Sequence record: ON286975
Length of the DNA: 64,000 bases
Direction: 5' to 3' (one strand)
DNA from: Escherichia phage I29
Part shown: piece by piece, positions 13,541-42,561 of the stretch
Position numbering within the stretch: position 1 is the stretch's first letter
Layout: the number at the start of each line of letters is the position of its first letter
Position numbers and translations under genes: made by a program
The notes under the pieces: model-generated
What the model was told of the DNA's origin: nothing
The model's input: the letters and a program-made list of their open reading frames with translations, nothing else
Databases searched by the model: none

Positions 13541-13565
13541 GGGGCCAAACGGCCCCTTTTTTATT
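13541..13565. terminator. bidirectional intrinsic terminator
   Basis: GGGGCC-AAAC-GGCCCC hairpin flanked by A-run upstream and T-run downstream, between convergent gene ends 13527 (+) and 13576 (-). Confidence 0.7.
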
Positions 13566-13575
13566 TACCCCCTTG

Positions 13576-22754: not shown

Positions 22755-23339
22755 TTAGAGGGTAGGTCGCTCCGGGAAGAAAATGTCAGGGGCTTTAGAT
22801 GTATCTATTTCAAGAAGTTTTACCCTGTACATTTTCAAATCTCTGATGTTACGTTTCTGGTCATCAGTAAGATCATATTCAAGGTCAATCATGTCTTGAT
22901 AGGCACCAATTCTAGCAGTAGCCCAAGCAAGTTCTGTCTCTATGACACCCTCTGCCTGTTGAACAAAGAATTCATTGTCTGTGACAAATTCATCACCAAC
23001 TAAACGCAAAGCGTCGTGGTGAAGCATAATGTTTTCTGGTACCTCTTCTTTTTTGGCGATAACCACACGAAGACCTGGAGCAGGCCATAAGGCATCAGGT
23101 TCTTCTGTAGATGTCTTAAGAATTCCCTTCTCGTCAACAAGTAGGAAGATACACCCTGGATTTTCTTGTCGTAATGTTCGTGACTGCACATACCAATCAC
23201 CATCATCATTACGTAAAAAATACCCAGTGTATGCGGTGTAATCCTCGACCTCTTGAGGGGTCAGCTCCTTGGTTTCCTTGTTGGAGTAGTATTCGCCAGA
23301 TCCCGGTTGGTAAAGTTTAAACTCTTGAAGTATTTTCAT
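22755..23339 (-). CDS. tail fibre assembly protein (Tfa-like chaperone)
   Basis: C-terminal segment YRVKLLEIDTSKAPDIFFPERP resembles the conserved C-terminus of tail fibre assembly proteins; lies immediately downstream of a fibre gene. Confidence 0.6.
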   Translation of the reverse strand: MKILQEFKLYQPGSGEYYSNKETKELTPQEVEDYTAYTGYFLRNDDGDWYVQSRTLRQENPGCIFLLVDEKGILKTSTEEPDALWPAPGLRVVIAKKEEVPENIMLHHDALRLVGDEFVTDNEFFVQQAEGVIETELAWATARIGAYQDMIDLEYDLTDDQKRNIRDLKMYRVKLLEIDTSKAPDIFFPERPTL

Positions 23340-26479: not shown

Positions 26480-27165
26480 TAACCCTCCTGTCTAGTTGCG
26501 TTTACTGTAATACTTTCACAATAAATGGTTGTGGTGTCCCAATCAGGTCTTACGTCAGGAACATATAGCAAAGTAGCCAGCCCACCAACTCCGAATTGGC
26601 TTTCTTCCCACACTGATCCGAAGCCAAGAGCTGTAGAGTCCCCTTCAAAACCAAAAGCTTGCCCTTGCGATTCTGTAAGACGCAAATGACAAGGTAATGG
26701 TAGCATATCTAAGATCTGATCGATAGACTGCAATATGTCAAAGCAAGTTTTTCTAATATTTATGTCAAACCTGAAGTTGTCTCCTTTCCACGTATCGAAA
26801 TTGTCTCTTCCGAACAATTGTCGCAAGGTGGAGATGACATCTTCGCGAGTCCCGCCCCTTGATGCTGCGGCCTGCTGAATAATTAGTGTGGCACGAAAAT
26901 CAGCATCTGAAAGTCCATTCCTAAGAATACCAAGTTGATTACCAACTTCGTCAAGGTATCTTCCGCTGGCATTGTTAAGCAATCTTCCTTCAGCCAAACC
27001 TACCAGCATCTTATCAACATCCTCCAACCTTTTAAGGTATACGGTTAAGAATGTGACTAAATTAACCTTCTCAGCCAGAAAATCTCCAGGTAGGTAGTCA
27101 AGACCTCCCTGAACAAAATCTGGCAGAGCGTGGATGTGGTTAACATCCGACTTAATCTCTGCCAT
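26479..27165 (-). CDS. hypothetical tail/baseplate protein, 228 aa
   Basis: ORF in baseplate/fibre block, start overlapping upstream stop. Confidence 0.45.
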   Translation of the reverse strand: MAEIKSDVNHIHALPDFVQGGLDYLPGDFLAEKVNLVTFLTVYLKRLEDVDKMLVGLAEGRLLNNASGRYLDEVGNQLGILRNGLSDADFRATLIIQQAAASRGGTREDVISTLRQLFGRDNFDTWKGDNFRFDINIRKTCFDILQSIDQILDMLPLPCHLRLTESQGQAFGFEGDSTALGFGSVWEESQFGVGGLATLLYVPDVRPDWDTTTIYCESITVNATRQEG

Positions 27166-27176: not shown

Positions 27177-27554
27177 TTAAATAGTTTGTTGGAAAGTTAT
27201 ATTACTTTCGTCGAGGTCAAACACCTCGGTCATGTTCGCAACAATATCGTTTGTAGTGTAAGCTTCATCAGAAGCTCCTACGGATTTAACTTGAATTACC
27301 AGTCTATTAAATCTGCCTATTGACACAGCAGCAGATGCAGCACCTACCAATTGGATATTATACAACGTATCTGCAACATCCAGTCCGTTAACAACCTGCA
27401 AAAGAGCCTCTATAATGGCATCTTTTTCGGTTGTTAACGGACTGGATGTTGCAGATACGTTGTATAATATCCAATTGGTAGGTGTTTGCCTTGGAGTAAT
27501 AAATTCTTTCAGTTTGACCGTCAGATGTAGTGACATCGTAGAAAATATTACCAT
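27177..27554 (-). CDS. ORF fragment, possibly C-terminal part of the split baseplate-J-like gene
   Basis: +1 frame relative to the upstream ORF, overlapping it by 167 nt; reads in frame through both arms of the 56-bp inverted repeat. Confidence 0.35.
   Translation of the reverse strand: MVIFSTMSLHLTVKLKEFITPRQTPTNWILYNVSATSSPLTTEKDAIIEALLQVVNGLDVADTLYNIQLVGAASAAVSIGRFNRLVIQVKSVGASDEAYTTNDIVANMTEVFDLDESNITFQQTI
27341..27484. repeat. perfect 56-bp inverted repeat with 32-bp spacer
   Basis: 27341-27396 is the exact reverse complement of 27429-27484; flanking bases 27340/27485 and 27397/27428 do not pair. Confidence 0.9.
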
Positions 27555-28668
27555 AAGTCCTGTTCGTACAGGCTATAGTTTGGTAAAGTGCTTGGCAAAT
27601 GTCTTCCGTTGCACCACCAAACACAACCACTTGGAACTTGTAAGGAGGTATACCTTTAGCATCAGTTTTATCGGTGTTGTTGGAGAACACTCTCACTTTC
27701 TCAACACCTTTCACCTCGCTTACAGCGCTAAGGATTGCAGGACGGGTAGCCTTAGATGTTAACTGTTTTGTGCTGGAAGCTCTTAAGCGATACTCTGAGT
27801 CTTTCTCAACATCCCTGCCCTCATTGAATCTTTCTCGGTTGGTAAGCTTGATAAATCCACTAGGAGTAGGTGACATTGTTGTCACGGTTTCTGCTTCTCT
27901 TGACAGCTCACCAGCCTCGTTAGCGATAACATCCAGTGTGATAGTTCTTTCCCCTACAATCGGGGATACTCTGAAATCTACCCTGCTGTTAAGCCCAACT
28001 TGATCAAGATTCGAATTGTACCCTATCCACAACGTTCCTGTCAACATATCGATCTGAATCAAATCGTCGTTCAACAGGGTTGTATTATCGACAATGAATT
28101 GCTTAATCTCTCCGTAAAAGCTTGGCAAATCAGAAGAGTCCAGAGACTTATCTGTTAAAACCAGGCTTTTTGTTTTGATACTTCCATCTGTCTGGTTGGT
28201 AATTTGGAAGTTGTATTTCCCAATCCTTAGGTCTGGAGCATTTATTCTGTGAGCAATAAGATTCCCTGCTACTTGCACATCGTTGCTAAGAACAAAGTTG
28301 CCACTGTCCAGCGTATAAGTTTTGGAATCATAAATCATATTGTACGGCACAGTTGTGTTGATTGTCAACTGGCAGGTACCTGATGATTTAGAACGGCCTC
28401 TTCGGTAAATACCCTGTCTTCCAAGAAGCTCATCTAGGTAAATACCTTCTGCCCCATACAGCGTCTGTGATGCGTATACAGATGCTGCCATAAGAATAAG
28501 TTGATACTCTCGCTCGTTGAAGATAGTGGTCAGCTTATCTGCAACGGAGTTACTCTGTACGTTGAAGTTTTCGCCAAAAGCACGGATCAGGCTTTGCTTA
28601 GTTTCAACGATTAGGTCATTTAGGGTTGGTATAACGAAACCAGCCTCTGTCAATCCATACTTAGCCAC
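27388..28668 (-). CDS. baseplate J-like protein (apparently truncated at the inverted repeat)
   Basis: N-terminus MAKYGLTEAGFVIPTLNDL... follows the pattern of baseplate J (gp47/gpJ)-family proteins; stop codon lies 6 nt into the second repeat arm. Confidence 0.55.
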   Translation of the reverse strand: MAKYGLTEAGFVIPTLNDLIVETKQSLIRAFGENFNVQSNSVADKLTTIFNEREYQLILMAASVYASQTLYGAEGIYLDELLGRQGIYRRGRSKSSGTCQLTINTTVPYNMIYDSKTYTLDSGNFVLSNDVQVAGNLIAHRINAPDLRIGKYNFQITNQTDGSIKTKSLVLTDKSLDSSDLPSFYGEIKQFIVDNTTLLNDDLIQIDMLTGTLWIGYNSNLDQVGLNSRVDFRVSPIVGERTITLDVIANEAGELSREAETVTTMSPTPSGFIKLTNRERFNEGRDVEKDSEYRLRASSTKQLTSKATRPAILSAVSEVKGVEKVRVFSNNTDKTDAKGIPPYKFQVVVFGGATEDICQALYQTIACTNRTYGNIFYDVTTSDGQTERIYYSKANTYQLDIIQRICNIQSVNNRKRCHYRGSFAGC

Positions 28669-28773: not shown

Positions 28774-31700
28774 TTAGTCGTGAGACTCGTTCCAAGGTCC
28801 CTGGAAGCTTGAGTTAGAACGACTAACGATCACAGTGGGACAGGAGATTGTGACACCTGTCACGCTCGACGTTGACCACGGTGTGTAAATCTCGATAACA
28901 ATGTCTATAGTTTGTTCACCCAGACCTGTTATCCCTACCGCACACATGCCGTTGTTGTCGTTAAAATACTTCTTGCCAGCAAGGATCTGATGACCAGCTA
29001 TCCATGCATTCAGTTGGGAGCCGGCAAGAGTACCGTTCAGTTTAAAGAAGAATGTTACGTTCTTACCCTGACCTGAAACGTTATCTACGTATCTCCACCT
29101 CCAACGGCAAACCCTTTGCTGGGAGTTATATACTGGAGCACAATCTCCGTAAGTCCTGTGTGCAACAATCGCACCTTCGAACTGGTTAGCACGGATAACA
29201 GAAGCTTCTACACGACCACGGAAGGTACCTCCGGTTGCATCTATGGTGCCTCTAAAGCTACCATTATTGGCATAAACATCACCACGGAAGGTACCACTGG
29301 TGGCGTTAACTGCCCCTGTGAAGTTACCAGAACTGGCGTTGATGTTACCTTTCACCCACACATCCATAAATTGGGCGTGCCCGTTCTTGTTAATATACCA
29401 ACCGTAGTTATGGTACCCGTTGCTATCGTAGTTGTTTGACGAAATTTCTTGTGCGATCTTGGCAGAGGAGATCGTGCCATTCTCTATAAAAGCGTCTTTC
29501 AAGAACGCTTGGTTATTCTTGATTGCGAAAGCAAGGGTTGCTGTGCCGTTACCAGGGTTGTACACCGCAAAGTTGTTTGCACTAACCATAAAGTATGATT
29601 GAACTTGTCCTCCAGACCCCTCCATGCCCAGCTGGATACCTGCCACATATTTATTACCATGGCTGTCAACCTGAATCTTAGCCCCCCACTGAGCATCTAT
29701 TTTACCCTCAAGTGTTGTTACAGCTTTAGAGGTATTAGATACTGTAGCCCTAAGCTCATCAATATTACCCATTTCGTCAACAATTTCTTGTTTTGCAGAG
29801 GTAAGTTCTTGACGGATCGCTGTGGCTGTATTATTAACAAGATCAACTGTTGTACTATTAGTTTCTTGAATAGATGCTTGCAGATTGGCAACCTCTTTCT
29901 GCACATCATCTTCCAGCTTGGTGATCTTCCCTGTAGCTGCCACCAGATCCTGCTTAATAGCTTCCGTTGTCTTATTTAGCAGGTCGGTTGTTGCCTTGTT
30001 GGTTTCTTGAATAGAGGAGTTAAGTTTGCTCTCAGTGTTCTTCAACTCTTCCCGCAGAGTACCTTGAGTTGCAGTTATTTGCTCACTCAATGCTTGAGTT
30101 TTACGATTAACAAGATCAACGGTTGATCTATTTGTTGTCTCGATTAGTGACCCAAGCCTACCAGACTCTGCTGCAAGTTTATCGTCAAAGGATTGCTGAG
30201 CTGCTACCAGCTTACTGTTAAGGGCAGAAATTTCTCCATTAACCCCTGTAAATTTTTCTGTCGTCTCTCTGACAACACCCTCTATTGTATCTCCAAGCTC
30301 TTCAAAAATGCTAGTAACACGGTCATTGACTGCACCAACATTTTTATCCATTTCCTTGACTGCATTATCGAGATTGGCGGTAAGCTCTTTATAAGTCTCT
30401 GTCTTTTTGAACTCAGCATCAATCTGCGGCATAAGATCTTCTATGGATGTGTAACAGTGGGCTGCACACTCCACAAAAGCAGATGAACCAAAAGCATTTG
30501 TTGTCCTGATATACCAATAATAAATCTTATCGTTCTGCAGACCTTCAGATGTCCAAGTTGAACCAACACCCATACGAGTGGCTTTTGAAGTAACGGTTGC
30601 ATCACTGGTATCTGGCAATCTTGTCATCCCAGATGTCCAAAAGTCATATTGGGTGCTTACACTGGCCAAGGCTCTGCTATGCGGGATCAGGGTAATAGCA
30701 AAGTATCCCTGTTTAACTTCTACAGAAACCGGAGCCTCAGGTGCCTGAATGTTAAACTCACAGTATGCTTCTGGAGATACACCACCTTTATAAGATGTTG
30801 CAACAACAGTGGCTGTGTAGGAACCTTTAGTCAGACCTTCAACACGGACAAACTGCTCAACTGTCTGCGCTGTCCAGACAATCTCTCCGTTTTTCCTGAC
30901 CTGCACAATGTTTTGAGCATAAGTCCCAACGTTGTCCCAAGCCAAAACACCGTGAGTTACTTCTCCAGCTTGGAGAACGGAATATCTGAAGTTTTGCGGT
31001 TGAGCTACACCAGATGGAGATATCGGAATATCTACATCGCCAGAATCCGGAAGTTGCCCTGTGGCATCATTCCACTCTTTAGCATCTTGACGAAGTTTTA
31101 CCTTGACACCACCCTTTTTGGTAAACTCCCATTCAAGAACTCTCATTTCTTGGCCTACTATACCAATACTTGGGAGGTCCATTGTAACGTAACGACCAGG
31201 TTTAAATTTGAAACCTCGCATATTGCAGGTGACTTCAATAATCCTGCCAGCTCTGGCACGTCTTAGGAAGATTGCAGAAACACGTTGAGCTTGATAAGGA
31301 CTGGTAACAAAGCGATAGTCTATATCGATTATCTTTCTTTCTCCATCCTTCCCTATCCACTCTGGGACAAACACTGATGGAAAATCTGTTTCAGAATACC
31401 CTTTGGTCGGACTAGTGAATCTGCCAGTTATTGTGTTGGATCTTTTGTCAAATGAGGCTTCCGGATAGATCTTGACCTCACCACAGACACAATCCTCACT
31501 CAGCGTCATTGTTGCCGGGCCATAGTATGCACCAACCAGCAAACCATACTTACCAGCTACATAGCTGAGATCTGCGCCACAAGCTTTCAGCATCTCTGCC
31601 ATAATGCTTGCCGGAGCCTCGTCCATGTCAAACTCGCCATTAATGGTGTATCGGCGCTCACTGGTTCCGTCTGCGTTTTTTACCGCCTCGTCGCATATGT

Positions 31701-32373
31701 TAGCAGCCTCCTTGAAGGACTCCCAGTTGATGGTTTCGTCAGGACATTTAAGGTACGTTCTTAAATAGTCTAGAATCACCAAGGCCGCGTTATTGGTATA
31801 CACCTCTTTACTGATGCGAGGATCATAGCATTTTTTACCAACCTTAACGAGTGTAACGTTTGGCAACCCAAAAGGAAACTTGTTAGGGTCAAACCTGAAG
31901 CTGGCACGTAGCCAACTGATCCCTCTACCTATCATGTCAGGTGACCATGATGGGCAGTGTGTACCCATGAAAGGATCAGATGTTTTTCTGTCGTTATGTA
32001 GCTCCCACGATACCAGATCTCCATACGAGGAAATAGGATTACCGTCGATGAGTATGTCCTCTATACCTTCCAGAGGATGATTAGCAAGAACAATGGCACA
32101 ATGGAGGGTTCTGTCTCTGTCCTGCTCCAAAAACGCAAGCAGTCCAGACGTGCGTGTCTTCCCATACACTACAGAGCAGGGTGCAGCAGAAGATCTGAGA
32201 AGCTTTTGTCTATCTTGCTGACTTCTGTAAGATTTGTTGCCCTCAAAAATCTTATCCAGAGTTCTGGTGGTAACAGTGTTCAGGCTGTCAGCCAGAGCTG
32301 CCTTGGATGCGTTCCAGTCATAACTTGAAGATCTTGCAGAAGCAACGATGTTATCAATCATTGCAATTGGCAT
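28774..32373 (-). CDS. host-specificity J-like central tail fibre protein, 1199 aa
   Basis: Large ORF preceded by three small tail-tip assembly-type genes; N-terminal region resembles lambda J-type proteins; central coiled-coil-like segment. Confidence 0.5.
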   Translation of the reverse strand: MPIAMIDNIVASARSSSYDWNASKAALADSLNTVTTRTLDKIFEGNKSYRSQQDRQKLLRSSAAPCSVVYGKTRTSGLLAFLEQDRDRTLHCAIVLANHPLEGIEDILIDGNPISSYGDLVSWELHNDRKTSDPFMGTHCPSWSPDMIGRGISWLRASFRFDPNKFPFGLPNVTLVKVGKKCYDPRISKEVYTNNAALVILDYLRTYLKCPDETINWESFKEAANICDEAVKNADGTSERRYTINGEFDMDEAPASIMAEMLKACGADLSYVAGKYGLLVGAYYGPATMTLSEDCVCGEVKIYPEASFDKRSNTITGRFTSPTKGYSETDFPSVFVPEWIGKDGERKIIDIDYRFVTSPYQAQRVSAIFLRRARAGRIIEVTCNMRGFKFKPGRYVTMDLPSIGIVGQEMRVLEWEFTKKGGVKVKLRQDAKEWNDATGQLPDSGDVDIPISPSGVAQPQNFRYSVLQAGEVTHGVLAWDNVGTYAQNIVQVRKNGEIVWTAQTVEQFVRVEGLTKGSYTATVVATSYKGGVSPEAYCEFNIQAPEAPVSVEVKQGYFAITLIPHSRALASVSTQYDFWTSGMTRLPDTSDATVTSKATRMGVGSTWTSEGLQNDKIYYWYIRTTNAFGSSAFVECAAHCYTSIEDLMPQIDAEFKKTETYKELTANLDNAVKEMDKNVGAVNDRVTSIFEELGDTIEGVVRETTEKFTGVNGEISALNSKLVAAQQSFDDKLAAESGRLGSLIETTNRSTVDLVNRKTQALSEQITATQGTLREELKNTESKLNSSIQETNKATTDLLNKTTEAIKQDLVAATGKITKLEDDVQKEVANLQASIQETNSTTVDLVNNTATAIRQELTSAKQEIVDEMGNIDELRATVSNTSKAVTTLEGKIDAQWGAKIQVDSHGNKYVAGIQLGMEGSGGQVQSYFMVSANNFAVYNPGNGTATLAFAIKNNQAFLKDAFIENGTISSAKIAQEISSNNYDSNGYHNYGWYINKNGHAQFMDVWVKGNINASSGNFTGAVNATSGTFRGDVYANNGSFRGTIDATGGTFRGRVEASVIRANQFEGAIVAHRTYGDCAPVYNSQQRVCRWRWRYVDNVSGQGKNVTFFFKLNGTLAGSQLNAWIAGHQILAGKKYFNDNNGMCAVGITGLGEQTIDIVIEIYTPWSTSSVTGVTISCPTVIVSRSNSSFQGPWNESHD

Positions 32374-32810
32374 TAATACCTCCAGACATCAACAACGATA
32401 GAATCTTTCATGTCGAACATAAAGACCCCTTTATCACCTTTCGCCCAAATCTGGTTGTTCCAGAACACACCAGCGGTGAGCCCGTTCAGACCTTCGAAGA
32501 TAACAATATCGCCACGCTGAACCTGTTTAGGAGTATCTAGTCGAGTCATAAAGAGATCAAAAATAGTAGGCAGGTGTGTGGTTTTGAAACGGAGCATGCA
32601 CCATCTTTTGCTTTCCAACTCTGTTTTATACGTTCCTTCGAAGTTAGAAAGAAAATCTGTTCCGTATTGGGCATCAACACACTTAGCTGCAAAGGTGCAG
32701 CAATCGTGGAATCCCCATTCAAAAGGTATGGTGGCCTCTTCGTCAAACACTCTCCACAATCTTTCTTGCCAATCCACTAAACGAGGGTGTGTGCTCATTA
32801 AACCTCCCAA
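32373..32810 (-). CDS. tail-tip assembly protein, 145 aa (possible NlpC/P60-like)
   Basis: Position immediately upstream of J-like gene; FHDCC motif; assignment by synteny with lambda/GTA-type tail tip modules. Confidence 0.35.
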   Translation of the reverse strand: MGGLMSTHPRLVDWQERLWRVFDEEATIPFEWGFHDCCTFAAKCVDAQYGTDFLSNFEGTYKTELESKRWCMLRFKTTHLPTIFDLFMTRLDTPKQVQRGDIVIFEGLNGLTAGVFWNNQIWAKGDKGVFMFDMKDSIVVDVWRY

Positions 32811-33364
32811 ATGATCGGGCGGCTCGCCACCTGATCCACATATTTAAAAAATCTGTCATTATCGTTTCTTGAGCTGTGGCTTTCCTCCGTGTACCGATAA
32901 GGAAAACCTCTTAACCAGCTGTTGAAGATGGAAGAGATGGATATGGACAAAGCACTATTCTCACCTGTCTGAATAGCCATATCTGTTATAAGTCCGTCAA
33001 ACAAGCCATTAGTTGTAACAGGTAGACCATTCTCCATAGCGGTAATGTACAACGTGGCACGACAACCAGAATACTCCGTCTTCAGCAGATCACCCACATA
33101 CTTGGGATCAAACCCGTTTAATGTTGCTACCACAGATCCGAAGTTGGTGGCATCTTTCTCAGACACAGCAGTTAATGTTGCTGATCCACCTATCCCTATA
33201 AAATGTTGCCCCTCAATTACTACAACACCAGTGCCTGAGCACACTCTGACAGTTCCTGTCGGTAGCTCCAGCTTTGCAGCAATTAAGATCTCAACACCAT
33301 CAAGCTCCAGCTTTTCAAGAAATAAATTATCTAATGGCGCTCTGATCATCTTAAAAATCCTCAA
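32798..33364 (-). CDS. tail-tip assembly protein, 188 aa
   Basis: Second of three small genes upstream of the J-like gene. Confidence 0.35.
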   Translation of the reverse strand: MRIFKMIRAPLDNLFLEKLELDGVEILIAAKLELPTGTVRVCSGTGVVVIEGQHFIGIGGSATLTAVSEKDATNFGSVVATLNGFDPKYVGDLLKTEYSGCRATLYITAMENGLPVTTNGLFDGLITDMAIQTGENSALSISISSIFNSWLRGFPYRYTEESHSSRNDNDRFFKYVDQVASRPIIWEV

Positions 33365-33941
33365 AGAAGTTGATAACTATATTATCACCTTTTTGCATAG
33401 CATCGACTTTTTGCTTAATTTTATAAATATCTCTGATATGAAACCTACCCTTCGGAGATTGAGTTATTATCTTCATGGTGTCCCCTGCGGCAATAGGTTT
33501 TCTAAGTCTTGGAGATATGCCTATAACAGCAGACCCAACACCATCACTACGCACTGGAGCTGTTACCACTTTCAACTCATCGTTCACAGATATTTTATCA
33601 CCAGCTCTGGCTATGTCTCTGTTTGGCTCCCACCCGACCGTCTTCAAAAAATCGTCGTTACCAGTAGGCCCAAGGGCGATTGGCTCGTTAGCTGTTACAG
33701 AGTGACCGTAAGTTTTAATAAGAAAGATGTTCCCATCTTTATACACCTGATCAACAAAGCTCTTAAGCTCTAGCAACTGTGACTCGCTGATATTGGAGAC
33801 CGTCAAAGTGCCTTTCCAGTTAGGTGTGGCATAGGTTACTTTTTGCGTTTTACCTGTAAACGGACTTTTAAACGTAACAATATCTGCCAGCAGCTCCAAT
33901 CTAATATCTGGAAGGTATCTAGGCCTTTCCCATAAAAACAT
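33351..33941 (-). CDS. tail-tip assembly protein, 196 aa
   Basis: First of three small genes upstream of the J-like gene. Confidence 0.35.
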   Translation of the reverse strand: MFLWERPRYLPDIRLELLADIVTFKSPFTGKTQKVTYATPNWKGTLTVSNISESQLLELKSFVDQVYKDGNIFLIKTYGHSVTANEPIALGPTGNDDFLKTVGWEPNRDIARAGDKISVNDELKVVTAPVRSDGVGSAVIGISPRLRKPIAAGDTMKIITQSPKGRFHIRDIYKIKQKVDAMQKGDNIVINFFEDF

Positions 33942-34000
33942 TGTGCCTCCAGGTTAAACAATCATGATAGTTATTTTACCAGATTTTGAGTTAATACGCA

Positions 34001-34033
34001 ATACAAACAAAAAGCCCCCGCCGAAGCGAGGGC
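34001..34033 (-). terminator. intrinsic terminator, UUCG-tetraloop hairpin
   Basis: Minus-strand GCCCUCGC-UUCG-GCGGGGGC (34014-34033, one G-U pair) followed by UUUUUGUUUG, after stop of the 1266-aa fibre gene. Confidence 0.65.
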
Positions 34034-34040
34034 AAAACAG

Positions 34041-37000
34041 TTACTTCAGTTTCTCTTGCAACCCAGTAACAACCTCTGTCAATTTTTTAACCTGCTCCTC
34101 AAGGGCGGTTATTTTATCGTCCTGTTCCCTGCAAACCTGGACAAGCAAGCCTGTTACAGCTGCATAGTCAACGTTATAGAATCTTTCCTCAGTCATCAGA
34201 GGGGTGCCGTCTTGAGTAGGCCCTGGAACCTCTTTCCTTTGCACGAAAGACCCAACCGCTTCTGGTAATGCTTCCATAACTTCTTGAGCAATTACCCCTG
34301 CGTAAGGCATACCATTCTCTTTTAAAGTATAGGTATAGCCTTTCATCTTCCGGATAGCTTCTACAGCGTTAGGTATGACCTCGATATTATCCTTCAGGTC
34401 ACGGTCAGAACTTTGACTAACAGTGGTGCATTCTACTGCACCATTGACAGCAAAATATCTTGATTTGGCCTCATCTGTCTTGGCCCCGCAATGGAATACC
34501 CAGTTGGAGAGTGTTGAGTTATCACTTATCTGGAACTCAAGCACATTCTTCCGGTCTGCACCATTGCCCCAATAATATAACCTACCTGTATTAGCAGGTA
34601 TGTTGGAACTGTTGCCAACAGTAGCTCCGCCGCCAGTGTGGATTATAAACTCTGGGTCAAGATTCGAACCTTGAGTTTTCAAAGTGATCCCTTTGCCACC
34701 AAGCTGCTGCCAAGGTCCCCATGTGAAAACACTACCTATTGTTGTTCCATAACGCAGGAATTTTTCCCCAAGATATGATACATATTCCTGCACACAGCTC
34801 TCAGGCACGTTGGCGTAATTCCTGTACACAATAAGTGTACCTGCCTGAGCACAAGGGTAGTTTCTCTCCGGAGTGGCCTGAGCATTGGCCTCTTGGTGAT
34901 AAAAACCCTCTCTATCCCCTTTGTAGTCGTTAAGGTCATTAGTTCCCAACCCTTGACCACGGTGCTGAATAACTTTGTTCCACGCTCTGTGGTTTCCCTG
35001 CTCTATGGAACGAGTGTACAGCTGGTCTAAACGACCTGCCATCTGGAAAGCGTAGTTTCCAGAAAAACCAACCGACAACCCTGCTACAACCATGGAACCT
35101 TCAGGTCCGTTGACGTTACCAGCCATTATTTTAGAAGGGTTGTTATTTCCGAACTGGTTGTTCCAGTCTGCACCTGTGTGGCATACAAAACCACCAGGAG
35201 CTGAGAAAGTGCCATCTTTGTTGAAGTTGTAGAATTTGTGAGCAGAACCTACAACATCACGAACAATAACTTGACCAGCCTCTGGAGTAGATCTGAACTC
35301 TGCCTGTCCTTTGAGACCAGCACCATTACCGCATTTAGAGGTAAACGTACCGTTAGTCAGATCCTCTGTCCCATCTGATGCACACTGGAAGCCTGCATTA
35401 GAGAATAACGCCTTTCTAGGACTGCCGTAGCACAAATAGTTAAGACCGTCTGCCCATAGCTCGACTTTTGGCATATTCATTTTGCTCATCACAGCATAGC
35501 GTTCAGCAGTGCCTATATAGTGCCACTGTGTGCCGCCACCAGTGTAGAACCCTGAAGTCCCTTTGAAGTCAACAATAGGTCTGGTGTTGGTATTATTATC
35601 TCCAAGAACAGCAAGATTCAAATCTGCTGACTGGAGAGGTGCAACGAACTTAACACCGTCCTGATTGTCTGTTACAGAGCCAACCTGGTAATCTTGCTCC
35701 CTGGTAAACACCTCGACAACATTTCTACTTGCGTATATGCTGACAGGGAAAGCACGCGCCTCTGCATAGAAAGCAACATATTCTTGTTTACCCCTTGTTG
35801 GAGCAACCATCCCAAGAAGTGCTTTTTCATTCTGGTAGAAATTTACTACCCCGTAGAAAGAGTCTCCTCTGTCTGTCCAACCACCAGTTCTATAGTGACA
35901 CTGTAAGGTCGCACAGTTCATAGGGTCATTTCCAGATGAAGACCTGGTGACTATAGTAATATCTGTACCTGTCGAAGGGGCGTAATACGGATCTGTTCTA
36001 ACGATGATTGGGTAGTATTTCCCATCTTCCATCCCTGCGGTTCTTGGCAGTGTTAAGAAGTCTTTTACACCTGCTGCTATAGGAACTTTGAACAGATTCT
36101 GAGCATCTGCTAAAGTTGTAGCCCCAGTGCCACCTGCGGCTTGAGGTAGAGGTTCCCACTTGGCCTTCCGGTTGTTATAAACACCCCATTCAAGCGTTCC
36201 TTCACCTTGCTCGTCCATACCGCCATCCCAGACAACCATCTTGGCGGCTTTCTTGGACCCCCAGAAGCCTCTTTCTGCCCCTGAACTACGGATCCACTCT
36301 CCAAGTCCCCAGTTTGCCAGCTGACCGTTCAGATCACCAACCTGCATATATTTAGGACAATCTAAGACCCCATCCTCACGGAAGCCTAAATAGCTATGAG
36401 TTTCAGATCCTTTTGCGCCTTTGTGCAGGTGGATTGTCAACCAAGCCTTATTGTCGTTTCTTACCTCAGAGTAGATCCTATACCCATGCTCAAGGACACC
36501 GTCAGCGCCGTATTTATCCCCATGGAGAATACCTGATGGAGACTTAACCTCAGAAGTGCTTTGAGATAGGTAAAGGTGCCCGAAGGTAGGGGTATTTCTA
36601 GACCCGAGACCGATGTGCGATCTAAAGGTATCATCGTTACGAGGTCTGACCATCGGCTGCCATGCAGTCCACTGATTTGTGTTGGCCTGATAGGTTCTCA
36701 AATACCAAACATCTACGTTAGAGAATGGATAGTATTCCTGACGACAACCTGTACCGCCGTTAGCATTGTTCTGCCAGACAATCAAGTGACCAGCACCAGA
36801 ACCTGCAGGGTAACCATTTGCCTCAGTTGCATAAGCAGTCATCGGCTGGTAGTATACACCATCCTGATTACCAGTCAAGTTATTGATATTGAAATTTGGC
36901 TCAAGGGCTGCACGTTGCTTATAGAAAGCACCGATATTGATACGGACTCCAGCGGCATCTCTAGCCCCTGTGCCGCCTTGCTCTATAGCAAGAGGTTGCC

Positions 37001-37841
37001 ACGAAGCTGTTTGTTGGTTCCACATACCCCAACGGCCTGTTGCATCAAGCTGCAAGTACCCTGCCGTATTTAAATCATCTCCAGCACGGATAACTGTTCT
37101 TGTTGGGTTGTTTGCCTCTAGGCGTTTAAATTCATCACGAAGTGCTATTCTTTTCGTTGTTGCTACACCGTTGGTTACTGCAATGGTGTACATGGCTCCG
37201 GTGGTAGCGCCACGGAAAATACCATCAACAGTTGTAGTATCACGACGAGATACCACACCGTTCAGAAATTTTTCACCAGCTGCTACAGAAGGGTAGTTGG
37301 TAGTTCTTCCCTCTTCAATAACTGCAGGGCCAACAAAGTTATCAAGGTGAATAACATCGCCTACAGTGTGCACTGTACCAAAATCTACACGCTGTGCAAG
37401 TGCTTTGGCATCGTTAGCTGTCTGAACAGTAACATCCATTACATCCTGGACAGACTGCCCTTCGGCTGTCATGATCATAGATGCGCCAATGGTAGATTCC
37501 AGCTCCTCCCTTAAGGACGGGTCAGTATATACCATCCATGCAGCATCAGTGATCCCACCATCGGAGTACGGTGAAGACAGTGCAGGAACAGTGTGCGGAA
37601 ATTCGCCTTTCCAACGTAGGTAGAGGTCTTCCTCTTCGAAGTAGGCAAAATCCATTGGGCCGTTTAACTTACCACCTTCCTTAAAGGAGATTACATGAGA
37701 AACAGTCCCATCAACATGGACAACATCGCCAATTTTTACACGACGGGTCAGGTCTGGTTGTTGAACAACCAGGTAATCATCCTCTGTCACTGCGGTAGTG
37801 GCAGGAAGAGATTCAATTCTGACAACTTTAATATCAGCCAT
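34041..37841 (-). CDS. tail fibre protein with C-terminal intramolecular chaperone (S74-type)
   Basis: C-terminus DRDLKDNIEVIPNAVEAIRKMKGYTYTLKENGMPYAGVIAQEV matches the self-cleaving chaperone domain of tail fibres/endosialidases; Gly-rich shaft. Confidence 0.75.
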   Translation of the reverse strand: MADIKVVRIESLPATTAVTEDDYLVVQQPDLTRRVKIGDVVHVDGTVSHVISFKEGGKLNGPMDFAYFEEEDLYLRWKGEFPHTVPALSSPYSDGGITDAAWMVYTDPSLREELESTIGASMIMTAEGQSVQDVMDVTVQTANDAKALAQRVDFGTVHTVGDVIHLDNFVGPAVIEEGRTTNYPSVAAGEKFLNGVVSRRDTTTVDGIFRGATTGAMYTIAVTNGVATTKRIALRDEFKRLEANNPTRTVIRAGDDLNTAGYLQLDATGRWGMWNQQTASWQPLAIEQGGTGARDAAGVRINIGAFYKQRAALEPNFNINNLTGNQDGVYYQPMTAYATEANGYPAGSGAGHLIVWQNNANGGTGCRQEYYPFSNVDVWYLRTYQANTNQWTAWQPMVRPRNDDTFRSHIGLGSRNTPTFGHLYLSQSTSEVKSPSGILHGDKYGADGVLEHGYRIYSEVRNDNKAWLTIHLHKGAKGSETHSYLGFREDGVLDCPKYMQVGDLNGQLANWGLGEWIRSSGAERGFWGSKKAAKMVVWDGGMDEQGEGTLEWGVYNNRKAKWEPLPQAAGGTGATTLADAQNLFKVPIAAGVKDFLTLPRTAGMEDGKYYPIIVRTDPYYAPSTGTDITIVTRSSSGNDPMNCATLQCHYRTGGWTDRGDSFYGVVNFYQNEKALLGMVAPTRGKQEYVAFYAEARAFPVSIYASRNVVEVFTREQDYQVGSVTDNQDGVKFVAPLQSADLNLAVLGDNNTNTRPIVDFKGTSGFYTGGGTQWHYIGTAERYAVMSKMNMPKVELWADGLNYLCYGSPRKALFSNAGFQCASDGTEDLTNGTFTSKCGNGAGLKGQAEFRSTPEAGQVIVRDVVGSAHKFYNFNKDGTFSAPGGFVCHTGADWNNQFGNNNPSKIMAGNVNGPEGSMVVAGLSVGFSGNYAFQMAGRLDQLYTRSIEQGNHRAWNKVIQHRGQGLGTNDLNDYKGDREGFYHQEANAQATPERNYPCAQAGTLIVYRNYANVPESCVQEYVSYLGEKFLRYGTTIGSVFTWGPWQQLGGKGITLKTQGSNLDPEFIIHTGGGATVGNSSNIPANTGRLYYWGNGADRKNVLEFQISDNSTLSNWVFHCGAKTDEAKSRYFAVNGAVECTTVSQSSDRDLKDNIEVIPNAVEAIRKMKGYTYTLKENGMPYAGVIAQEVMEALPEAVGSFVQRKEVPGPTQDGTPLMTEERFYNVDYAAVTGLLVQVCREQDDKITALEEQVKKLTEVVTGLQEKLK

Positions 37842-37877
37842 TCTTTCTCCTGAAAGGGGGCAAACAGCCCCCCTATG

Positions 37878-40475
37878 TTAAAGGTACAATCCACGGTATT
37901 GAGCATAAAGGCCCAGACCGCGAAGGATTTCGCCAGAGTGATAGCCAACCGGATCAGAAACTGCCCAGCAGCCGTTTAAAATATTATCCCCATTAATGAA
38001 GTGGTGCTTTTGCAGTAGCTTCACACAGGCTTCCACAACAATATCTATTTGAGGTATTGTCTCTGAATACCCGCACAGACCTAGCCAGCAGCAACCTGCA
38101 AGCCATTCACCTACCACCCACATCCTGTCTCCTCTGTCCTGATAAGAATATCCCCCAGAGGTGTTAAAGTCTGTAGGCAGATTTCCTGAATGAGATGACT
38201 GGAATCTGTTGAGGAACCATGCCCATTTCTGGCAGAACAGGAATAGTCTTTCATCAACAGGTTCTTTATGTTTCTTGAGCTCATATATTGTGCGGCACGC
38301 AGCAACAAAAGATCTTGACTGGAGCTTAGAGTTATCTACCATCTCCCACCAACCAGTCAACCCTTCATTACCTCTTTGCCATACATAACGTGAGGCAACT
38401 GGACCCTCTGTCTTAAATGTATTATTATACCAGACTTGAGCGTCATACAGAAAGCCTATTGTATTTGACAATCTATGGCGATCTATGTTTTCTGCACCCA
38501 TGCAGTAGACTGCTGGGTATTGCATGCCAGGGTAGGGCCAATTTGGCCTTTCCTCTAAGAGATAGTTTTCCTTATCTATCACCTTTCCGGCAGGGAACAC
38601 ACCTGGTGTGTGCCTGTATGCACCTTGCTTGTAGTTTCTGACATAGCAATCACCAACCTTGGCGGTTGATTCTGTCTTGCTTGCCATCCATACGCTAAAC
38701 CAGATTAGATAAGCATCCCTATCTGCAATATAGAATTGCGGCAGTGTGTTGACGCAATATAGATCAAACAAGCCATTACCTATCTGCCTGTCGCTTAGGC
38801 TGAAATCTACAGAGGTGAGTCCCTTAGGATTAGCAAAGAAAGGTTTAATCTCTTCTTCAGTGTGATGAGGTTGTGTCGGATCTAGTTTGAAATCTCCTAG
38901 AGTAAGAGTTTCTGTTATCCATTGTCCATTAGTGGCATATAGATCAGCATACCATAACCACCTGTCTTTGTCAAGAAATTTGACCCTTACCATCTCATCA
39001 TCTGATCGATAAGTTACTGAGTTTAAAGAAATCTCTCTTCCAAAGTTGAAAGTTACTTTGCCTCTTGCTATATTACAACGGGTGAAGTTGTCAGAGTGGT
39101 TGTAAATGTCAGTATCGTACTGCATACTAACACTGGCACCACCGCTCACGGCAATGTTTTCCTCTTTAGGTAAGAGGTACGGATTACCGTCTTTACCAAC
39201 TACCTCTACGAAATCAGTAACCTTGGCAACTATTTCTGTTACCTCTGCCCCTCCAAAAGGAACCCCTATCCTGTACTGTTTTTTGTTATTGTTGCCATCA
39301 TTAAGGATGAAATGTGGCTGGAACAGAACCCCTTCTCCTCCGAAATTCATAACAATTTCAGCATCTCTGCCTATTTTGTATGTAGTCCCTTTTTGAATTA
39401 TTTCGCAAGGCTGGCGTGCGTTCATTCTAAAATTGATATACCCGTCACTGTCTCTGCTCATGACAGGAACTGTTCCTGCAACAAGACAAGTACCGTCTGT
39501 AAACGGTGCCTTAATCAACGTGGTCTTTCTAAACAACTTGTCGTAGGCGTTTATATCACTGAAATTAAGCAACTTGTTGTAAGACTGTTTAAACGCGGTG
39601 TAATACTTTTCCTCACCTGTCAAGGTGTAGAGTTGATAACAAGCGTCACACCACATTTCTTCCCCGTCCAACTCTGGGGCCTGATTATCTGCAACCACGT
39701 TTATAGGATTTACAATTACAGGGGATCCAGCAGGTATCACCGATCCACCCTGCTCTTGAGGTAATCTTACACAATAGGTCACCTTGTGGCTTCCTGTAAC
39801 ACCCTTATCTTGTAATTGGATTGTGCCGAACTCTATAGACGTATGCCCACTGTCGGCTATGCTCCCGTTAGCCCAATAGCGGTTACCATCCCATGCTATG
39901 TACCACTCAACCCACCAACTTAATCCTGATGTTGTCCAATCTGGGTTAGCATCTGTGCCACCGTAAACATCAGAGTCTACAGTGTTTCTTCCTAACACAC
40001 CGTTATACGCTTGGAATGCCTTGTCCAGGTATTCCCCCCATGTCGGAGATCCAGCTGGGATTTTTCCTCTACCGTTGGTAAAAGACACTACCACATCTTT
40101 AAACCCACCGTGTGATGGAACCCCATCTGTGGATAGAGGGTAGTGGGACAATCTTTGCATTTTACTTTCTACGGCATATGCACCCAGAAGATGACTATTG
40201 TAAGCTTCCCAAGCATCTTTTGCCCTATCCAGATAGAAATCGCTTTTCGATGCCCTGTATGCTTCAATGTATCCCAGAATCAACACAGCTTGGGACTCAT
40301 GCATTGCCCAATCGTTATTTATCTTATTACCTGCCCACCCTGCAGCTATAAGACCATCAGGGTTTACTAGCTTATTTTGTGTAGGTGTGTTGGTAATACC
40401 TGTGTTGTTATCGAGGCACTTCCTGTGCCCCTCAATCATCTGAAATACGTTATCAATGTTGTGTTGAATACGCAT
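37878..40475 (-). CDS. large tail-associated protein, 865 aa (possible glycan-active spike)
   Basis: Trp/Tyr-rich sequence with helical N-terminal segment reminiscent of alpha/alpha-barrel glycosidases; assignment tentative. Confidence 0.4.
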   Translation of the reverse strand: MRIQHNIDNVFQMIEGHRKCLDNNTGITNTPTQNKLVNPDGLIAAGWAGNKINNDWAMHESQAVLILGYIEAYRASKSDFYLDRAKDAWEAYNSHLLGAYAVESKMQRLSHYPLSTDGVPSHGGFKDVVVSFTNGRGKIPAGSPTWGEYLDKAFQAYNGVLGRNTVDSDVYGGTDANPDWTTSGLSWWVEWYIAWDGNRYWANGSIADSGHTSIEFGTIQLQDKGVTGSHKVTYCVRLPQEQGGSVIPAGSPVIVNPINVVADNQAPELDGEEMWCDACYQLYTLTGEEKYYTAFKQSYNKLLNFSDINAYDKLFRKTTLIKAPFTDGTCLVAGTVPVMSRDSDGYINFRMNARQPCEIIQKGTTYKIGRDAEIVMNFGGEGVLFQPHFILNDGNNNKKQYRIGVPFGGAEVTEIVAKVTDFVEVVGKDGNPYLLPKEENIAVSGGASVSMQYDTDIYNHSDNFTRCNIARGKVTFNFGREISLNSVTYRSDDEMVRVKFLDKDRWLWYADLYATNGQWITETLTLGDFKLDPTQPHHTEEEIKPFFANPKGLTSVDFSLSDRQIGNGLFDLYCVNTLPQFYIADRDAYLIWFSVWMASKTESTAKVGDCYVRNYKQGAYRHTPGVFPAGKVIDKENYLLEERPNWPYPGMQYPAVYCMGAENIDRHRLSNTIGFLYDAQVWYNNTFKTEGPVASRYVWQRGNEGLTGWWEMVDNSKLQSRSFVAACRTIYELKKHKEPVDERLFLFCQKWAWFLNRFQSSHSGNLPTDFNTSGGYSYQDRGDRMWVVGEWLAGCCWLGLCGYSETIPQIDIVVEACVKLLQKHHFINGDNILNGCWAVSDPVGYHSGEILRGLGLYAQYRGLYL

Positions 40476-40476
40476 C

Positions 40477-41145
40477 TTAGATAGCTCCTGCGATAATCAA
40501 TGCCCCGTACCAAGTTAACCCGTTGTCGTAGGTTTCCAACTTGAAAATGTCTGTTGCACCAGCTGTAAATGTTAGGATAGGATCTCTTCCGTAGGACCAT
40601 TTAACATTACCAGGCCAATAGACTTTGTTGCCGCCAGAGGTCTGAGTAATGCATACGGTTATAGTTCTCGCCACCCCTTCAAGACCTTCTGTTTGATTTT
40701 CAAAAGAGATTGTGGTATTTGAAGTTAGTCGAACCTTAAAGGTATCCGCAACTTCAAGATCCATATCAAGCTGACCACCGATAGATCCGTAATCAACTAT
40801 TCTGCCAGAAGAAGTTGCAGCAAGCTCACCAAAAACAGACCAGGCGTTTGCAGACACACCCCCAGCACCCTCTACAGTGGAGTCTGGGAGGATTATTTTA
40901 GGATAATCCCCGTTCCACGTGTAGTAGCGCTTAGTTTCTGGATCATAAGCAAAGTCCTTCTTGCTCTTAAGATAACCACCCTCTGTGAAATAGACTATCT
41001 TAGTAATGCTAAGATCGTTGACAACATCGTCAATCTTAGCCTTTCTTGTCCCATCAGTCTGGTTGACAACCAAGAAGTCATCACTCAGGACTGTTTCTGC
41101 ATCTTCAAGATCTGGAATTGGTATTGTAGGATAAGCTACAGCCAT
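40477..41145 (-). CDS. baseplate-attached fibre-like protein, 222 aa
   Basis: N-terminal ~100 aa homologous to the N-terminus of the 1266-aa fibre (DDFLVVNQTDGTRKAKIDDVV vs DDYLVVQQPDLTRRVKIGDVV; FTEGG..DFAY vs FKEGG..DFAY). Confidence 0.5.
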   Translation of the reverse strand: MAVAYPTIPIPDLEDAETVLSDDFLVVNQTDGTRKAKIDDVVNDLSITKIVYFTEGGYLKSKKDFAYDPETKRYYTWNGDYPKIILPDSTVEGAGGVSANAWSVFGELAATSSGRIVDYGSIGGQLDMDLEVADTFKVRLTSNTTISFENQTEGLEGVARTITVCITQTSGGNKVYWPGNVKWSYGRDPILTFTAGATDIFKLETYDNGLTWYGALIIAGAI

Positions 41146-41154
41146 GATTTCTCC

Positions 41155-41871
41155 TTAGTTAACATCAATAGCACGACCAGACTGGTTGGCAATAGCCTCA
41201 TCATTGGAGGTAGCAATAACACCAGAGTATTCGCGCTCATCTGGAGCAAGAGTCCAGGTATTGCGGTTAATGGTTTGTTCTGCCTCGGTCATCAGCAGAT
41301 CTTTATCCTGAGTCAACAGAGAGCCTACAGGGATAGGGTTTTCCATCTCAGGACCAGCATACTGGTTCCACCATGTGGCATCTCCGGTTCTAGGCAATCT
41401 GAAGTTGATCAGGTAGTACAGTTTATTGGCCCACTTAATCCAACCTTCATCATCACAGAGAGAGGTTGTCCCAGAATCAGGCTGTGGGTAGGTAAACTGA
41501 TCAAGACCTACGAAAGCCAGCCTTACAATCTCGTTCTCTTTGGTAACAACCTCAAAGAACGCTTGGTATGTTCTCGATCTTCGATCCATGGTAGACTGGA
41601 AGTTTACGATGTTTAGCACATCCGGCTCTTGTCTTGCCACTTCCATAATCTTGTTATCAAGAACAGTCTTCATGACCTTCTTACTGAGAAAGTCCATATA
41701 AGGGAAGCCAAACAACTCGTCAAAGTACCAGCTCCCCTTCCACGTATTAAACCTCATCCACAAGCGCTGGCGCAGACTTACCTGGTTTGAATCTATCAAC
41801 TCAAGACCTTTGTCTATCGCCAAATCGCCTGTCTGTGGGTCCATCAATATATCACTATAAAGCGTAGCCAT
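41155..41871 (-). CDS. baseplate-associated hypothetical protein, 238 aa
   Basis: Located between spike-like gene and fibre genes. Confidence 0.4.
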   Translation of the reverse strand: MATLYSDILMDPQTGDLAIDKGLELIDSNQVSLRQRLWMRFNTWKGSWYFDELFGFPYMDFLSKKVMKTVLDNKIMEVARQEPDVLNIVNFQSTMDRRSRTYQAFFEVVTKENEIVRLAFVGLDQFTYPQPDSGTTSLCDDEGWIKWANKLYYLINFRLPRTGDATWWNQYAGPEMENPIPVGSLLTQDKDLLMTEAEQTINRNTWTLAPDEREYSGVIATSNDEAIANQSGRAIDVN

Positions 41872-41883
41872 GAAAGCCCTCTA

Positions 41884-42561
41884 TTAGTGCGGTCCACTTG
41901 TCTCGCCATCAGGGCAAGAGTGGGTATGACCTTTATATTCTGCATAGAATGAATCCAAATCCACACCAGCAGCAGTTATAATTCTACCAGATGGGTCTAT
42001 TGTGGCACCATTCATTCTGATATTTCCATCCACAGCAGCTCGCAAATTGGCAGCACCGTTAGTGAAAGAAAACTCCCCGCTGCTGTCGCACCGTAATGTC
42101 CCACCCGGTGTTTGAAGCTCAAAATCTCCAGAAGGTGTCAGTTTAAAATAGACCTTATCATTCCATAACTCTACGTTATCAGGATCGATCTGTAAAGCGT
42201 TTGAGTCTGAATGAACAGAGGTTATTGCCCACCCAGGAAACAGGCCGTGAGTTTGTTGATCGTCGTTATTGTTTTCATTTCTCTCTGAAAACTGCAATCC
42301 TACAACATCACCAGCTTTAATAGGAAGTGTTAACCTTGCCTTTCCACTGTTTGCAGACATCACTTGAATTGGAACGTCATAGATAAGAGGGTATCTCTCC
42401 ACATCTCCATCATCAAACGTGGTTTCAGCTATTGGCTGCACGGCTGCAGAAGGGATACTGTAGTCTACACTGACAACTCTGGCCCTGATACTGGTGTGGT
42501 AGTCCCTCATTATTTTTTCTATAAAGGATCTTACAGCAGCATCTTTCCTATTTATTGCCAT
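41884..42561 (-). CDS. baseplate central spike protein (gpV/gp45-like)
   Basis: 225 aa; beta-rich with C-terminal apex motif KGHTHSCPDGETSGPH resembling metal-binding tips of P2 gpV / Mu gp45-type spikes. Confidence 0.55.
   Translation of the reverse strand: MAINRKDAAVRSFIEKIMRDYHTSIRARVVSVDYSIPSAAVQPIAETTFDDGDVERYPLIYDVPIQVMSANSGKARLTLPIKAGDVVGLQFSERNENNNDDQQTHGLFPGWAITSVHSDSNALQIDPDNVELWNDKVYFKLTPSGDFELQTPGGTLRCDSSGEFSFTNGAANLRAAVDGNIRMNGATIDPSGRIITAAGVDLDSFYAEYKGHTHSCPDGETSGPH

Follow-up and report, generated by a model that had tools for sequence, protein, structure and literature searches.

Conserved N-terminal anchors that carry exchangeable distal domains are known for the receptor-binding proteins (RBPs) of the phages CBA120, G7C and K1-5 and of Klebsiella phages (PMC6872550, PMC8825819). 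In CBA120 and G7C an N-terminal head attaches the trimeric RBP to a partner within a branched multi-RBP complex (PMC6872550, PMC8825819); the head of the CBA120 tailspikes is composed of D1 and D2, and D1 contacts XD3 of the partner TSP4 (PMC8825819). A short N-terminal peptide, by which they are attached and behind which the distal domains are swapped, is shared by the RBPs of K1E and K1-5 (gp37 adaptor with gp46/gp47) as well as of the Klebsiella KP32 type, Menlow, PhiK64-1 and Mydovirus (PMC6872550; bioRxiv 10.64898/2026.05.12.724579). According to a 2026 preprint whose dataset includes Mydovirus, no anchor is shared more widely than the 'Orf210 N-terminal domain' (bioRxiv 10.64898/2026.05.12.724579). 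In the gp10-gp11-gp12 assembly of T4 a small trimeric protein (~220 amino acids, aa) and a long fibre are both attached through the N-terminus at the edge of the baseplate (PMC6872550, PMC8825819), and the capsid spike gp52 of Pa223 is a small homotrimer attached via an N-terminal arm of ~40 residues (bioRxiv 10.1101/2025.06.11.659172). Here we analyze two genes of Escherichia phage I29 (ON286975) whose products, a protein of 222 aa and a tail fibre of 1266 aa, begin with a related module. The whole stretch of 64,000 nucleotides is referred to as the window and all coordinates are positions in it.

The window belongs to the rV5-like Vequintavirus group. More than 100 Escherichia phages of this genus, all rV5-like, have a DNA identity of 92-97% to the 8-kb region which contains both genes. 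The 222-aa gene (40477-41145, minus strand; PHROG 7760 over the full length, E=8e-120) corresponds to gp43 of rV5, the 1266-aa gene (34041-37841, minus strand; PHROG 6578) to gp41, and an 865-aa gene located between them (37878-40475, minus strand) to gp42 of rV5 and to gp141 of phi92. All three proteins, gp41, gp42 and gp43, were detected by mass spectrometry in rV5 virions (PMC3606486). The same paper likens the N-terminus of gp43 to that of the P22 tailspike, and the paralogy of gp41 and gp43 goes unmentioned there (PMC3606486). Likewise the 2026 structure paper on phi92 mentions neither the paralogy of gp140 and gp143, the phi92 proteins related to the pair studied here, nor gp141 (PMC13450770). 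Three sets of fibres have been seen on these phages, and the assignment of genes to them was left open (PMC8594841; phi92 structure PMC13450770).

Relationship of the two N-termini

When the two proteins were compared by BLASTP, residues 8-105 of the 222-aa protein aligned with residues 7-105 of the 1266-aa protein with 38% identity, 55% positives and one gap (E=3e-18), and there were no significant segments between the two proteins outside this N-terminal alignment. The Smith-Waterman score of 176 is far above the scores of 300 shuffles (41.4 ± 5.7, maximum 62), corresponding to z=23.8. The original prediction had claimed that the first ~100 residues of both proteins align closely, and this claim is confirmed by both statistics. 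The two sequence motifs quoted at that time are also found in both proteins, namely DDFLVVNQTDGTRKAKIDDVV / DDYLVVQQPDLTRRVKIGDVV for the first and FTEGGYLKSKKDFAY / FKEGGKLNGPMDFAY for the second; only the spacing given for the second motif has to be corrected, as there are four and not three residues between the L and DFAY.

On the DNA level the relationship is much less evident. The aligned codons of the two genes have a nucleotide identity of 48%, and where the residues are identical the third codon positions match in 19 of 45 codons. Since the nucleotide identity is that low and the third positions match that rarely, the similarity is an old paralogy kept at the protein level and not the product of a recent duplication or of gene conversion.

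Parts A and B of the module

The shared module has two separable parts, which we call part A (aa 1-45) and part B (aa 46-105). Part A spans 41011-41145 in the 222-aa gene and 37707-37841 in the fibre gene, both on the minus strand, and is recognized by an A-only hidden Markov model (HMM) with E=7e-20 and E=1e-19, respectively. Its consensus reads ..V.I.dLP.a..v...DyLvv.Q.D.TrK..i.dvv, and no Pfam family covers it. In the six alleles of the 222-aa gene which we compared, part A shows 32 synonymous and 0 non-synonymous codon differences. Part B (40831-41010 in the 222-aa gene and 37527-37706 in the fibre gene, minus strand) is the Pfam family PF18668 (Tail_spike_N). It scores above the gathering cutoff of 25 bits in both proteins, with 41.0 bits for aa 51-105 of the 222-aa protein and 40.9 bits for aa 46-103 of the fibre. 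In the fibre it is followed by the shaft, the tip and the S74 domain, in the 222-aa protein by the C-terminal domain. Among known structures, part B of the 222-aa protein matches chains of TSP1, TSP3 and TSP4 of CBA120 and of gp63.1 of G7C. Part B of the fibre matches the CBA120 tailspikes together with 9occ_G, 9lna_A, 9d84_A and 4qnl_A, and the alignment to 9occ_G runs on to aa 138. Part B aligns to residues ~105-158 of CBA120 TSP1 and, judged by these residue ranges, probably is D2, the second half of the tailspike 'head'; part A would then take the position of D1.

That the two parts are separable is seen in related phages. In phi92, gp140 (157 aa) and the endosialidase gp143 possess part A and lack part B, and gp151 starts with part B without a preceding part A. 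In a group of proteins from Klebsiella phages of the Mydovirus type, an insert of 55-80 residues separates A from B. Part A alone is therefore common to all paralogue pairs which we examined (rV5-like phages, Seunavirus and phi92), and part B is dispensable in phi92.

In order to count the copies of part A, an HMM built from 17 part-A sequences was run on the window and on fetched loci of related phages. There are exactly two copies in the window, and phmmer did not find a third copy of the module in the window either. Two copies are also present in the locus of Seunavirus SalP219 (in a colanidase of 712 aa and a protein of 224 aa) and in the locus of phi92 (gp140 and gp143). In all three types of phages the two A-bearing genes flank a gene of the gp141 type, and nothing else scores better than E=0.46. 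In the Klebsiella Mydovirus KpS11 (fetched locus 6720-15365) part A heads four consecutive RBP genes, whose products have 632, 901, 278 and 680 aa, and homologues of the 222-aa C-terminal domain and of the 865-aa protein are both absent from this locus. Part A is thus found twice in the window and again in Seunavirus, phi92 and Mydovirus loci. A search with the A+B profile against 1.84 billion representative proteins gave 611 clusters at E<=0.001. In about 20 of these the complete module stands right at the N-terminus; the proteins are 214-1599 aa long and their distal parts are unrelated. Most of the remaining clusters contain only B, at internal offsets of 48-380 residues. All comparative evidence therefore supports the earlier reading that a common attachment module is reused on different distal domains.

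The 222-aa protein as probable adaptor

The original prediction spoke of different distal domains behind the module and of an exchange of receptor-binding domains. The distal domain of the 222-aa protein is not a variable receptor-binding domain. The C-terminal ~100 residues (40480-40779, minus strand) form a connector domain which is conserved across nine lineages and tied to the 865-aa protein. Within the genus the 222-aa protein is 99.3% identical and its C-domain 99%, and the six alleles differ by 323 synonymous and 40 non-synonymous codons, indicating purifying selection. As the protein is near-invariant and synonymous changes dominate, it is unlikely to be a decaying remnant or a variable RBP.

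By tblastn, about 525 phage records contain the C-domain and 524 the 865-aa protein. The numbers for C-domain and 865-aa protein are also nearly the same for each genus: 239/242 in Escherichia, 101/101 in Salmonella, 60/62 in Vibrio, 33/33 in Erwinia, 23/23 in Campylobacter, 12/12 in Cronobacter, 7/7 in Aeromonas and 6/6 in Klebsiella. These record counts together with nine fetched loci, which are not a full enumeration, are the basis of the co-occurrence. The nine loci represent rV5-like phages, Seunavirus, phi92, a T7-like Autographiviridae phage, Grimontviridae, a 157-kb Vibrio phage, a 348-kb jumbo phage, Rosemountvirus and Kolesnikvirus. In each of the nine the gene for a small protein of 157-269 aa which ends in the C-domain directly precedes the gene for the large protein, and the stop codon of the small gene and the start codon of the large gene overlap or abut. 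The junction in the window reads TAA-G-ATG, the 865-aa gene beginning 1 nt downstream of the 222-aa gene. In KpS11, as described above, the small and the large protein are jointly absent.

Across these lineages the small proteins have only the C-domain in common, whereas their N-termini are lineage-specific and consist of A+B, of A alone or, in the T7-like Serratia phage Kaonashi (Autographiviridae), of the N-terminal T7 tail-fibre domain PF03906 (Phage_T7_tail). Homology among the large proteins begins at the very first residues, and none of them has an N-terminus specific to its lineage. At the fetched Kaonashi locus the canonical tail-fibre slot is filled by this gene pair alone. The pattern of the window is repeated in Erwinia phage Roscha1, in which the N-terminal ~140 residues of the small protein are paralogous to the N-terminus of a neighbouring 502-aa fibre (E=1e-12).

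The 865-aa protein itself gave no match to Pfam. It has an (alpha/alpha)6 toroid fold with structural matches at 8-14% identity and is a glycosidase-like (alpha/alpha)6-barrel protein without an anchor of its own. Searches for homologues in large databases gave only 4-6 sequences, and AlphaFold2 was run on the 222-aa protein with an alignment of four sequences. The C-domain is modelled as beta-rich with a predicted local distance difference test score (pLDDT) of 63-76. The only significant Foldseek match of the model is the Pa223 capsid spike (9ny6_C, E=3.6e-5, probability 1.0); the authors of the phi92 structure reported a comparable fold match for gp140 (PMC13450770).

Based on the co-occurrence, the adjacency and an N-terminus which changes with the type of virion, the 222-aa protein most likely acts as an adaptor carrying the 865-aa protein as its proposed cargo. 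We also considered that it might be a tail-fibre assembly chaperone. This possibility was rejected, as the protein has no Pfam match of the Caudo_TAP type, its gene lies upstream of the partner and gp43 of rV5 is present in virions; the window's real gene for such a protein is located at 22755-23339.

Exchange of distal parts and the mosaic fibre

In different phages the same anchor is followed by colanidase, endosialidase, pectate-lyase-type beta-helix spikes and S74 fibres, and further tips look LamG-like or His-x-His-needle-like, which is read from sequence motifs and not from profile hits. The colanidase of Seunavirus carries A+B and the endosialidase gp143 of phi92 the first 45 residues, i.e., part A. 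The colanidase domain is found on A+B in SalP219 (fetched locus 12001-14139) and on a helical N-terminal module in gp150 of phi92 (fetched locus 13479-15893), from which we conclude that it moved between two anchors. The helical module of gp150 also heads a 581-aa protein of the window (19263-21008).

The 1266-aa fibre is a mosaic. Its first 134 residues are common to the Seunavirus colanidases, and a neck of aa 106-168 (37338-37526, minus strand) extends to the boundary between families, as judged from the limits of homology. From aa 168 to 1261 the protein is homologous to lateral fibres of siphophages, T5-like ones and others, which are devoid of the module; the identity is 34-36%. Exchange within the genus takes place further downstream. 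Six Vequintavirus alleles are 98-100% identical over aa 1-400 and only 44-60% around aa 1000-1150, and alleles of the Bas49 type match aa 1-1046 only, the last ~220 residues being replaced. The fibre contains an internal repeat of ~80 residues (self-alignment score 112, z=16) with the core motif NGYP..AG.LIV..N.AN...C.QEY, the copies of which are located at aa 318-397 (36651-36890) and aa 969-1047 (34701-34937, both minus strand). The copies coincide with the breakpoints within the genus, the second being the swap point of the C-terminus. The exchange of S74 for lectin described for the C-terminus of the 'TC12' fibre, which has been visualised by cryo-electron microscopy and may be the orthologue of the 1266-aa protein, matches this swap. 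The fibre variants P0015 and P0016 diverge at the first repeat, and in P0015 the repeat forms the junction of a 617-aa deletion. Judged by these breakpoints the repeat may serve as a substrate for recombination. It may also correspond to 'D42', a mobile domain in the RBPseg paper.

The proposal of a hotspot for the exchange of receptor-binding domains is supported by these data with one qualification. The mosaic fibre and the varied distal parts behind one anchor agree with it, but the breakpoints within the genus are found downstream, at about aa 400 and 1046, and not at the boundary of the module. On the evidence of these alignments the recent exchanges fall downstream of the module, and those at its boundary took place earlier, between genera.

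The fibre ends with a Peptidase_S74 domain (34041-34409, minus strand; 52.4 bits, cutoff 22, aa 1145-1196), a C-terminal intramolecular chaperone. It contains the Ser-x4-Lys motif SDRDLK at aa 1145-1150, which predicts that the chaperone is self-cleaving. A strong hairpin resembling an intrinsic terminator lies directly 3' of the fibre gene (34014-34033, minus strand; 8-bp stem with seven GC pairs, followed by TTTTTG). Between the 865-aa and the 1266-aa genes there is a weaker GGGGGGC/GCCCCC hairpin (about 37850-37870), which is not distinguished from shuffled sequences (z=-1.4) and was not flagged as a terminator.

Proposed docking and alternative explanations

We propose that a bipartite anchor plugs in both a fibre and an adaptor-plus-enzyme arm, and we assign a probability of roughly 0.65 to this explanation. 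Part A would be the docking peptide of myophages of the rV5/phi92 type, and part B, situated behind it, would probably form a head that is stable and trimeric. With this module two different receptor-binding arms, presumably trimeric, could be plugged into sockets at the edge of the baseplate which are either equivalent or paralogous. In the first arm, the 1266-aa fibre, the anchor would be fused directly to a mosaic shaft with a variable tip and a self-cleaving S74 chaperone. In the second arm the conserved C-terminal domain of the 222-aa adaptor would hold the anchorless, glycosidase-like 865-aa protein. We infer docking at the baseplate from synteny and the literature. By analogy to the cryo-electron microscopy (cryo-EM) of phi92, taken from the literature, the socket probably is the C-terminal domain of a wedge protein.

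The genes for the 222-aa and 865-aa proteins could moreover constitute a portable two-gene cassette for host recognition which moved among at least nine contractile- and short-tailed lineages, the N-terminal anchor of the adaptor differing by lineage while the rest stays homologous. The complex (gp43-gp42 in rV5, gp140-gp141 in phi92) might then account for unassigned fibre density at the baseplate of phages of the rV5/phi92 type, either for fibre II or for the arm of the L-shaped fibre I. We regard this extension as tentative and put its chances somewhat below even.

Several observations weigh against the proposed docking. The contact between adaptor and cargo is deduced from comparative genomics, and the 865-aa protein need not have an oligomeric state that suits a trimeric adaptor. 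The part-A profile had no significant match in the PDB (best hit crAss001 gp22, E=0.23, taken as noise), and in the AlphaFold2 model of the 222-aa protein the pLDDT is below 50 for aa 1-114, that is, the N-terminal module was not modelled. No docking platform similar to gp10 of T4, such as the XD2/XD3 domains on which the heads dock in gp66 of G7C and TSP4 of CBA120, was found by Pfam among 18 tail proteins of the window; in the literature gp10-like domains have been found only at the sensitivity of HHpred (PMC6872550). The cryo-EM study of phi92 did not place gp140 in the tested density of fibre II and does not mention gp141 (PMC13450770). In Rosemountvirus and Grimontviridae the cassettes adjoin head and neck genes, and the only fold similar to that of the 222-aa protein belongs to a capsid spike, so that the complex might instead be located at the neck or the capsid; in this lineage it is synteny that places it at the baseplate.

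Among the other explanations, a chance or compositional match of the two N-termini, or a recent duplication or gene conversion without functional meaning, has nothing in its favour except the short length of about 100 aa. It is refuted by the alignment statistics (E=3e-18, z=24), both proteins independently match the same curated Pfam family, a nucleotide identity of 48% excludes a recent copy, and the conservation of the paralogue pair across three genera argues against a functionless duplication; we give it practically no weight. It is also conceivable that both proteins dock through the module on the 865-aa protein instead of on a core protein of the baseplate; the 865-aa protein would in that case act as an arm of the gp141 type or as a scaffold for branching. 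In favour of this reading, A-bearing genes flank the 865-aa gene in the rV5-like, Seunavirus and phi92 genomes, and fibre I of phi92 is described as an L-shaped arm whose distal end bears the endosialidase (PMC13450770). Yet at the KpS11 locus four RBPs carry part A and there is no 865-aa homologue, and in podophages and other lineages the 865-aa family is accompanied by a small partner with a different N-terminus and no A-type protein was detected. Its fold is that of an enzyme-like (alpha/alpha)6 barrel and not of a gp10-like platform. As a gp10-like platform for both anchors the 865-aa protein is rejected on account of this fold, the missing Pfam match and Mydovirus, and because of Mydovirus and the fold we consider it an unlikely partner of part A altogether.

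The 222-aa protein could finally be a stand-alone mini-fibre or spike with a C-terminal knob binding to the host or to the virion surface, the linkage to the 865-aa protein reflecting co-transfer or a chaperone-like role. Databases label the protein as tail fibre, its only fold match, the Pa223 capsid spike, is a trimer with an N-terminal attachment arm and a distal knob, and the same C-domain ends a PHROG fibre family of 1086 aa. Such a protein would be hard to reconcile with the occurrence in 525 versus 524 records and the adjacency with translational coupling in nine of nine lineages, and a C-domain which is 99% identical within the genus is unlike receptor-binding tips. In Kaonashi the small protein occupies the tail-fibre position and the large protein is the only RBP candidate seen at the fetched locus. 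Tail-fibre assembly chaperones differ from the 222-aa protein, which is found in the virion and has its gene upstream, and this speaks against a chaperone-like role. We therefore judge the mini-fibre to be improbable as well and prefer the anchor shared by the fibre and the adaptor-plus-enzyme arm.

Neighbouring genes and database annotation

In the BASEL phage Bas58 the 222-aa counterpart is labelled 'sialidase domain protein', the 865-aa counterpart 'lateral tail fiber protein with glycosidase domains' and the 1266-aa counterpart 'lateral tail fiber protein'. There the three genes have the sheath initiator on one side and a set of lambda-J-like tail-tip genes on the other. In the window this siphovirus-type set (28774-33941, minus strand) is part of the baseplate locus of a contractile-tailed phage and encodes a lambda-J-like protein of 1199 aa with Phage_Tail_Tip and Ig_J domains, a DUF6950 protein and the PHROG categories 'tail protein' and 'distal tail protein'.

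The Baseplate_J-like wedge gene (27177-28668, minus strand) consists of two overlapping frames, 27388-28668 and 27177-27554, and is a single open reading frame of 497 aa in Bas58. The difference can be traced to a divergent patch of ~30 nt at about 27436-27465 with a net gain of 1 nt. The split could reflect an error in sequencing, decay to a pseudogene or a genuine frameshift. A further candidate wedge protein, of 228 aa, is encoded at 26479-27165. At 24407-26479 (minus strand) there is a 690-aa lateral fibre protein with NCTSP_N, TIM-barrel_NCTSP (the 'non-contractile tail sheath' of the N4 gp65 type) and Calx-beta domains, which is 42% identical to gp142 of phi92. It is consistent with the deacetylase fibre targeting the enterobacterial common antigen (ECA) that is discussed in the BASEL paper.

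About 18-25 GenBank records of 'Campylobacter phage' with C. jejuni as host (e.g., MG065662 and MG065682) match positions 33900-41900 of the window. Their fibre proteins are about 88% identical to the fibre studied here, and the C-domains of the small proteins are identical. This suggests that the hosts are mislabelled or that the records stem from contaminating coliphages.

Significance and comparison with known systems

The principle of a common anchor is textbook knowledge for phage RBPs, and our finding will not surprise specialists; the pair of the 222-aa and the 1266-aa protein is a new, undescribed instance of a known design. In the available literature we found no description of the two-part module, of its fixed copy number or, above all, of an adaptor-plus-enzyme cassette across morphotypes, as we read them from the sequences. 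Phages of the rV5 and phi92 type infect an exceptionally broad range of hosts, and their fibres have been likened to a 'Swiss-army-knife' (PMC8594841, PMC13450770). Exactly two proteins with part A, of which one would be an adaptor, provide constraints for the fitting of cryo-EM densities. For the engineering of host range, aa 1-45 or 1-134 would be the part to be kept when new receptor-binding domains are grafted, and if the adaptor reading is true the adaptor-plus-enzyme pair could be transferred as a unit by changing only the N-terminus of the adaptor.

The heads of TSP1 and TSP3 of CBA120 and gp63.1 of G7C resemble part B of the window proteins and belong to the PF18668 family. In place of the D1 of CBA120 TSP1, the window proteins carry the 45 residues of part A, and unlike CBA120 and G7C no T4 gp10-like XD platform was detected in the window by Pfam. 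In other tailspikes part B is located 48-380 residues from the N-terminus. As in the K1-5, KP32 and Mydovirus type, at least two RBPs share an N-terminal peptide, and the same anchor is combined with different distal domains; part A is longer (about 45 aa compared to 7-29 aa in the K1-5/KP32 type) and its sequence is different. Pa223 gp52, in contrast to what is proposed for the 222-aa protein, is located on the capsid and not on the tail and lacks a partner enzyme, the identity being 13% with no match on the sequence level.

The layout of a small protein together with a long fibre is similar to that of T4. There is no detectable relationship to the T4 proteins by sequence or Pfam, and the intervening protein is an enzyme-like (alpha/alpha)6 barrel instead of a gp10-type scaffold. 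Direct counterparts are found in phi92, in which gp140, gp141 and gp143 are syntenic to the genes of the 222-aa protein, the 865-aa protein and the variable RBP, and gp140 and gp143 share part A. The phi92 locus differs from the window in that both proteins are without part B and the variable slot is occupied by an endosialidase and not by a long fibre. The N-terminal domain of T7 gp17 (PF03906) is absent from the window. Since the orthologue in Kaonashi uses this domain in place of A+B, we conclude that the N-terminus of the adaptor is a virion-specific anchor.

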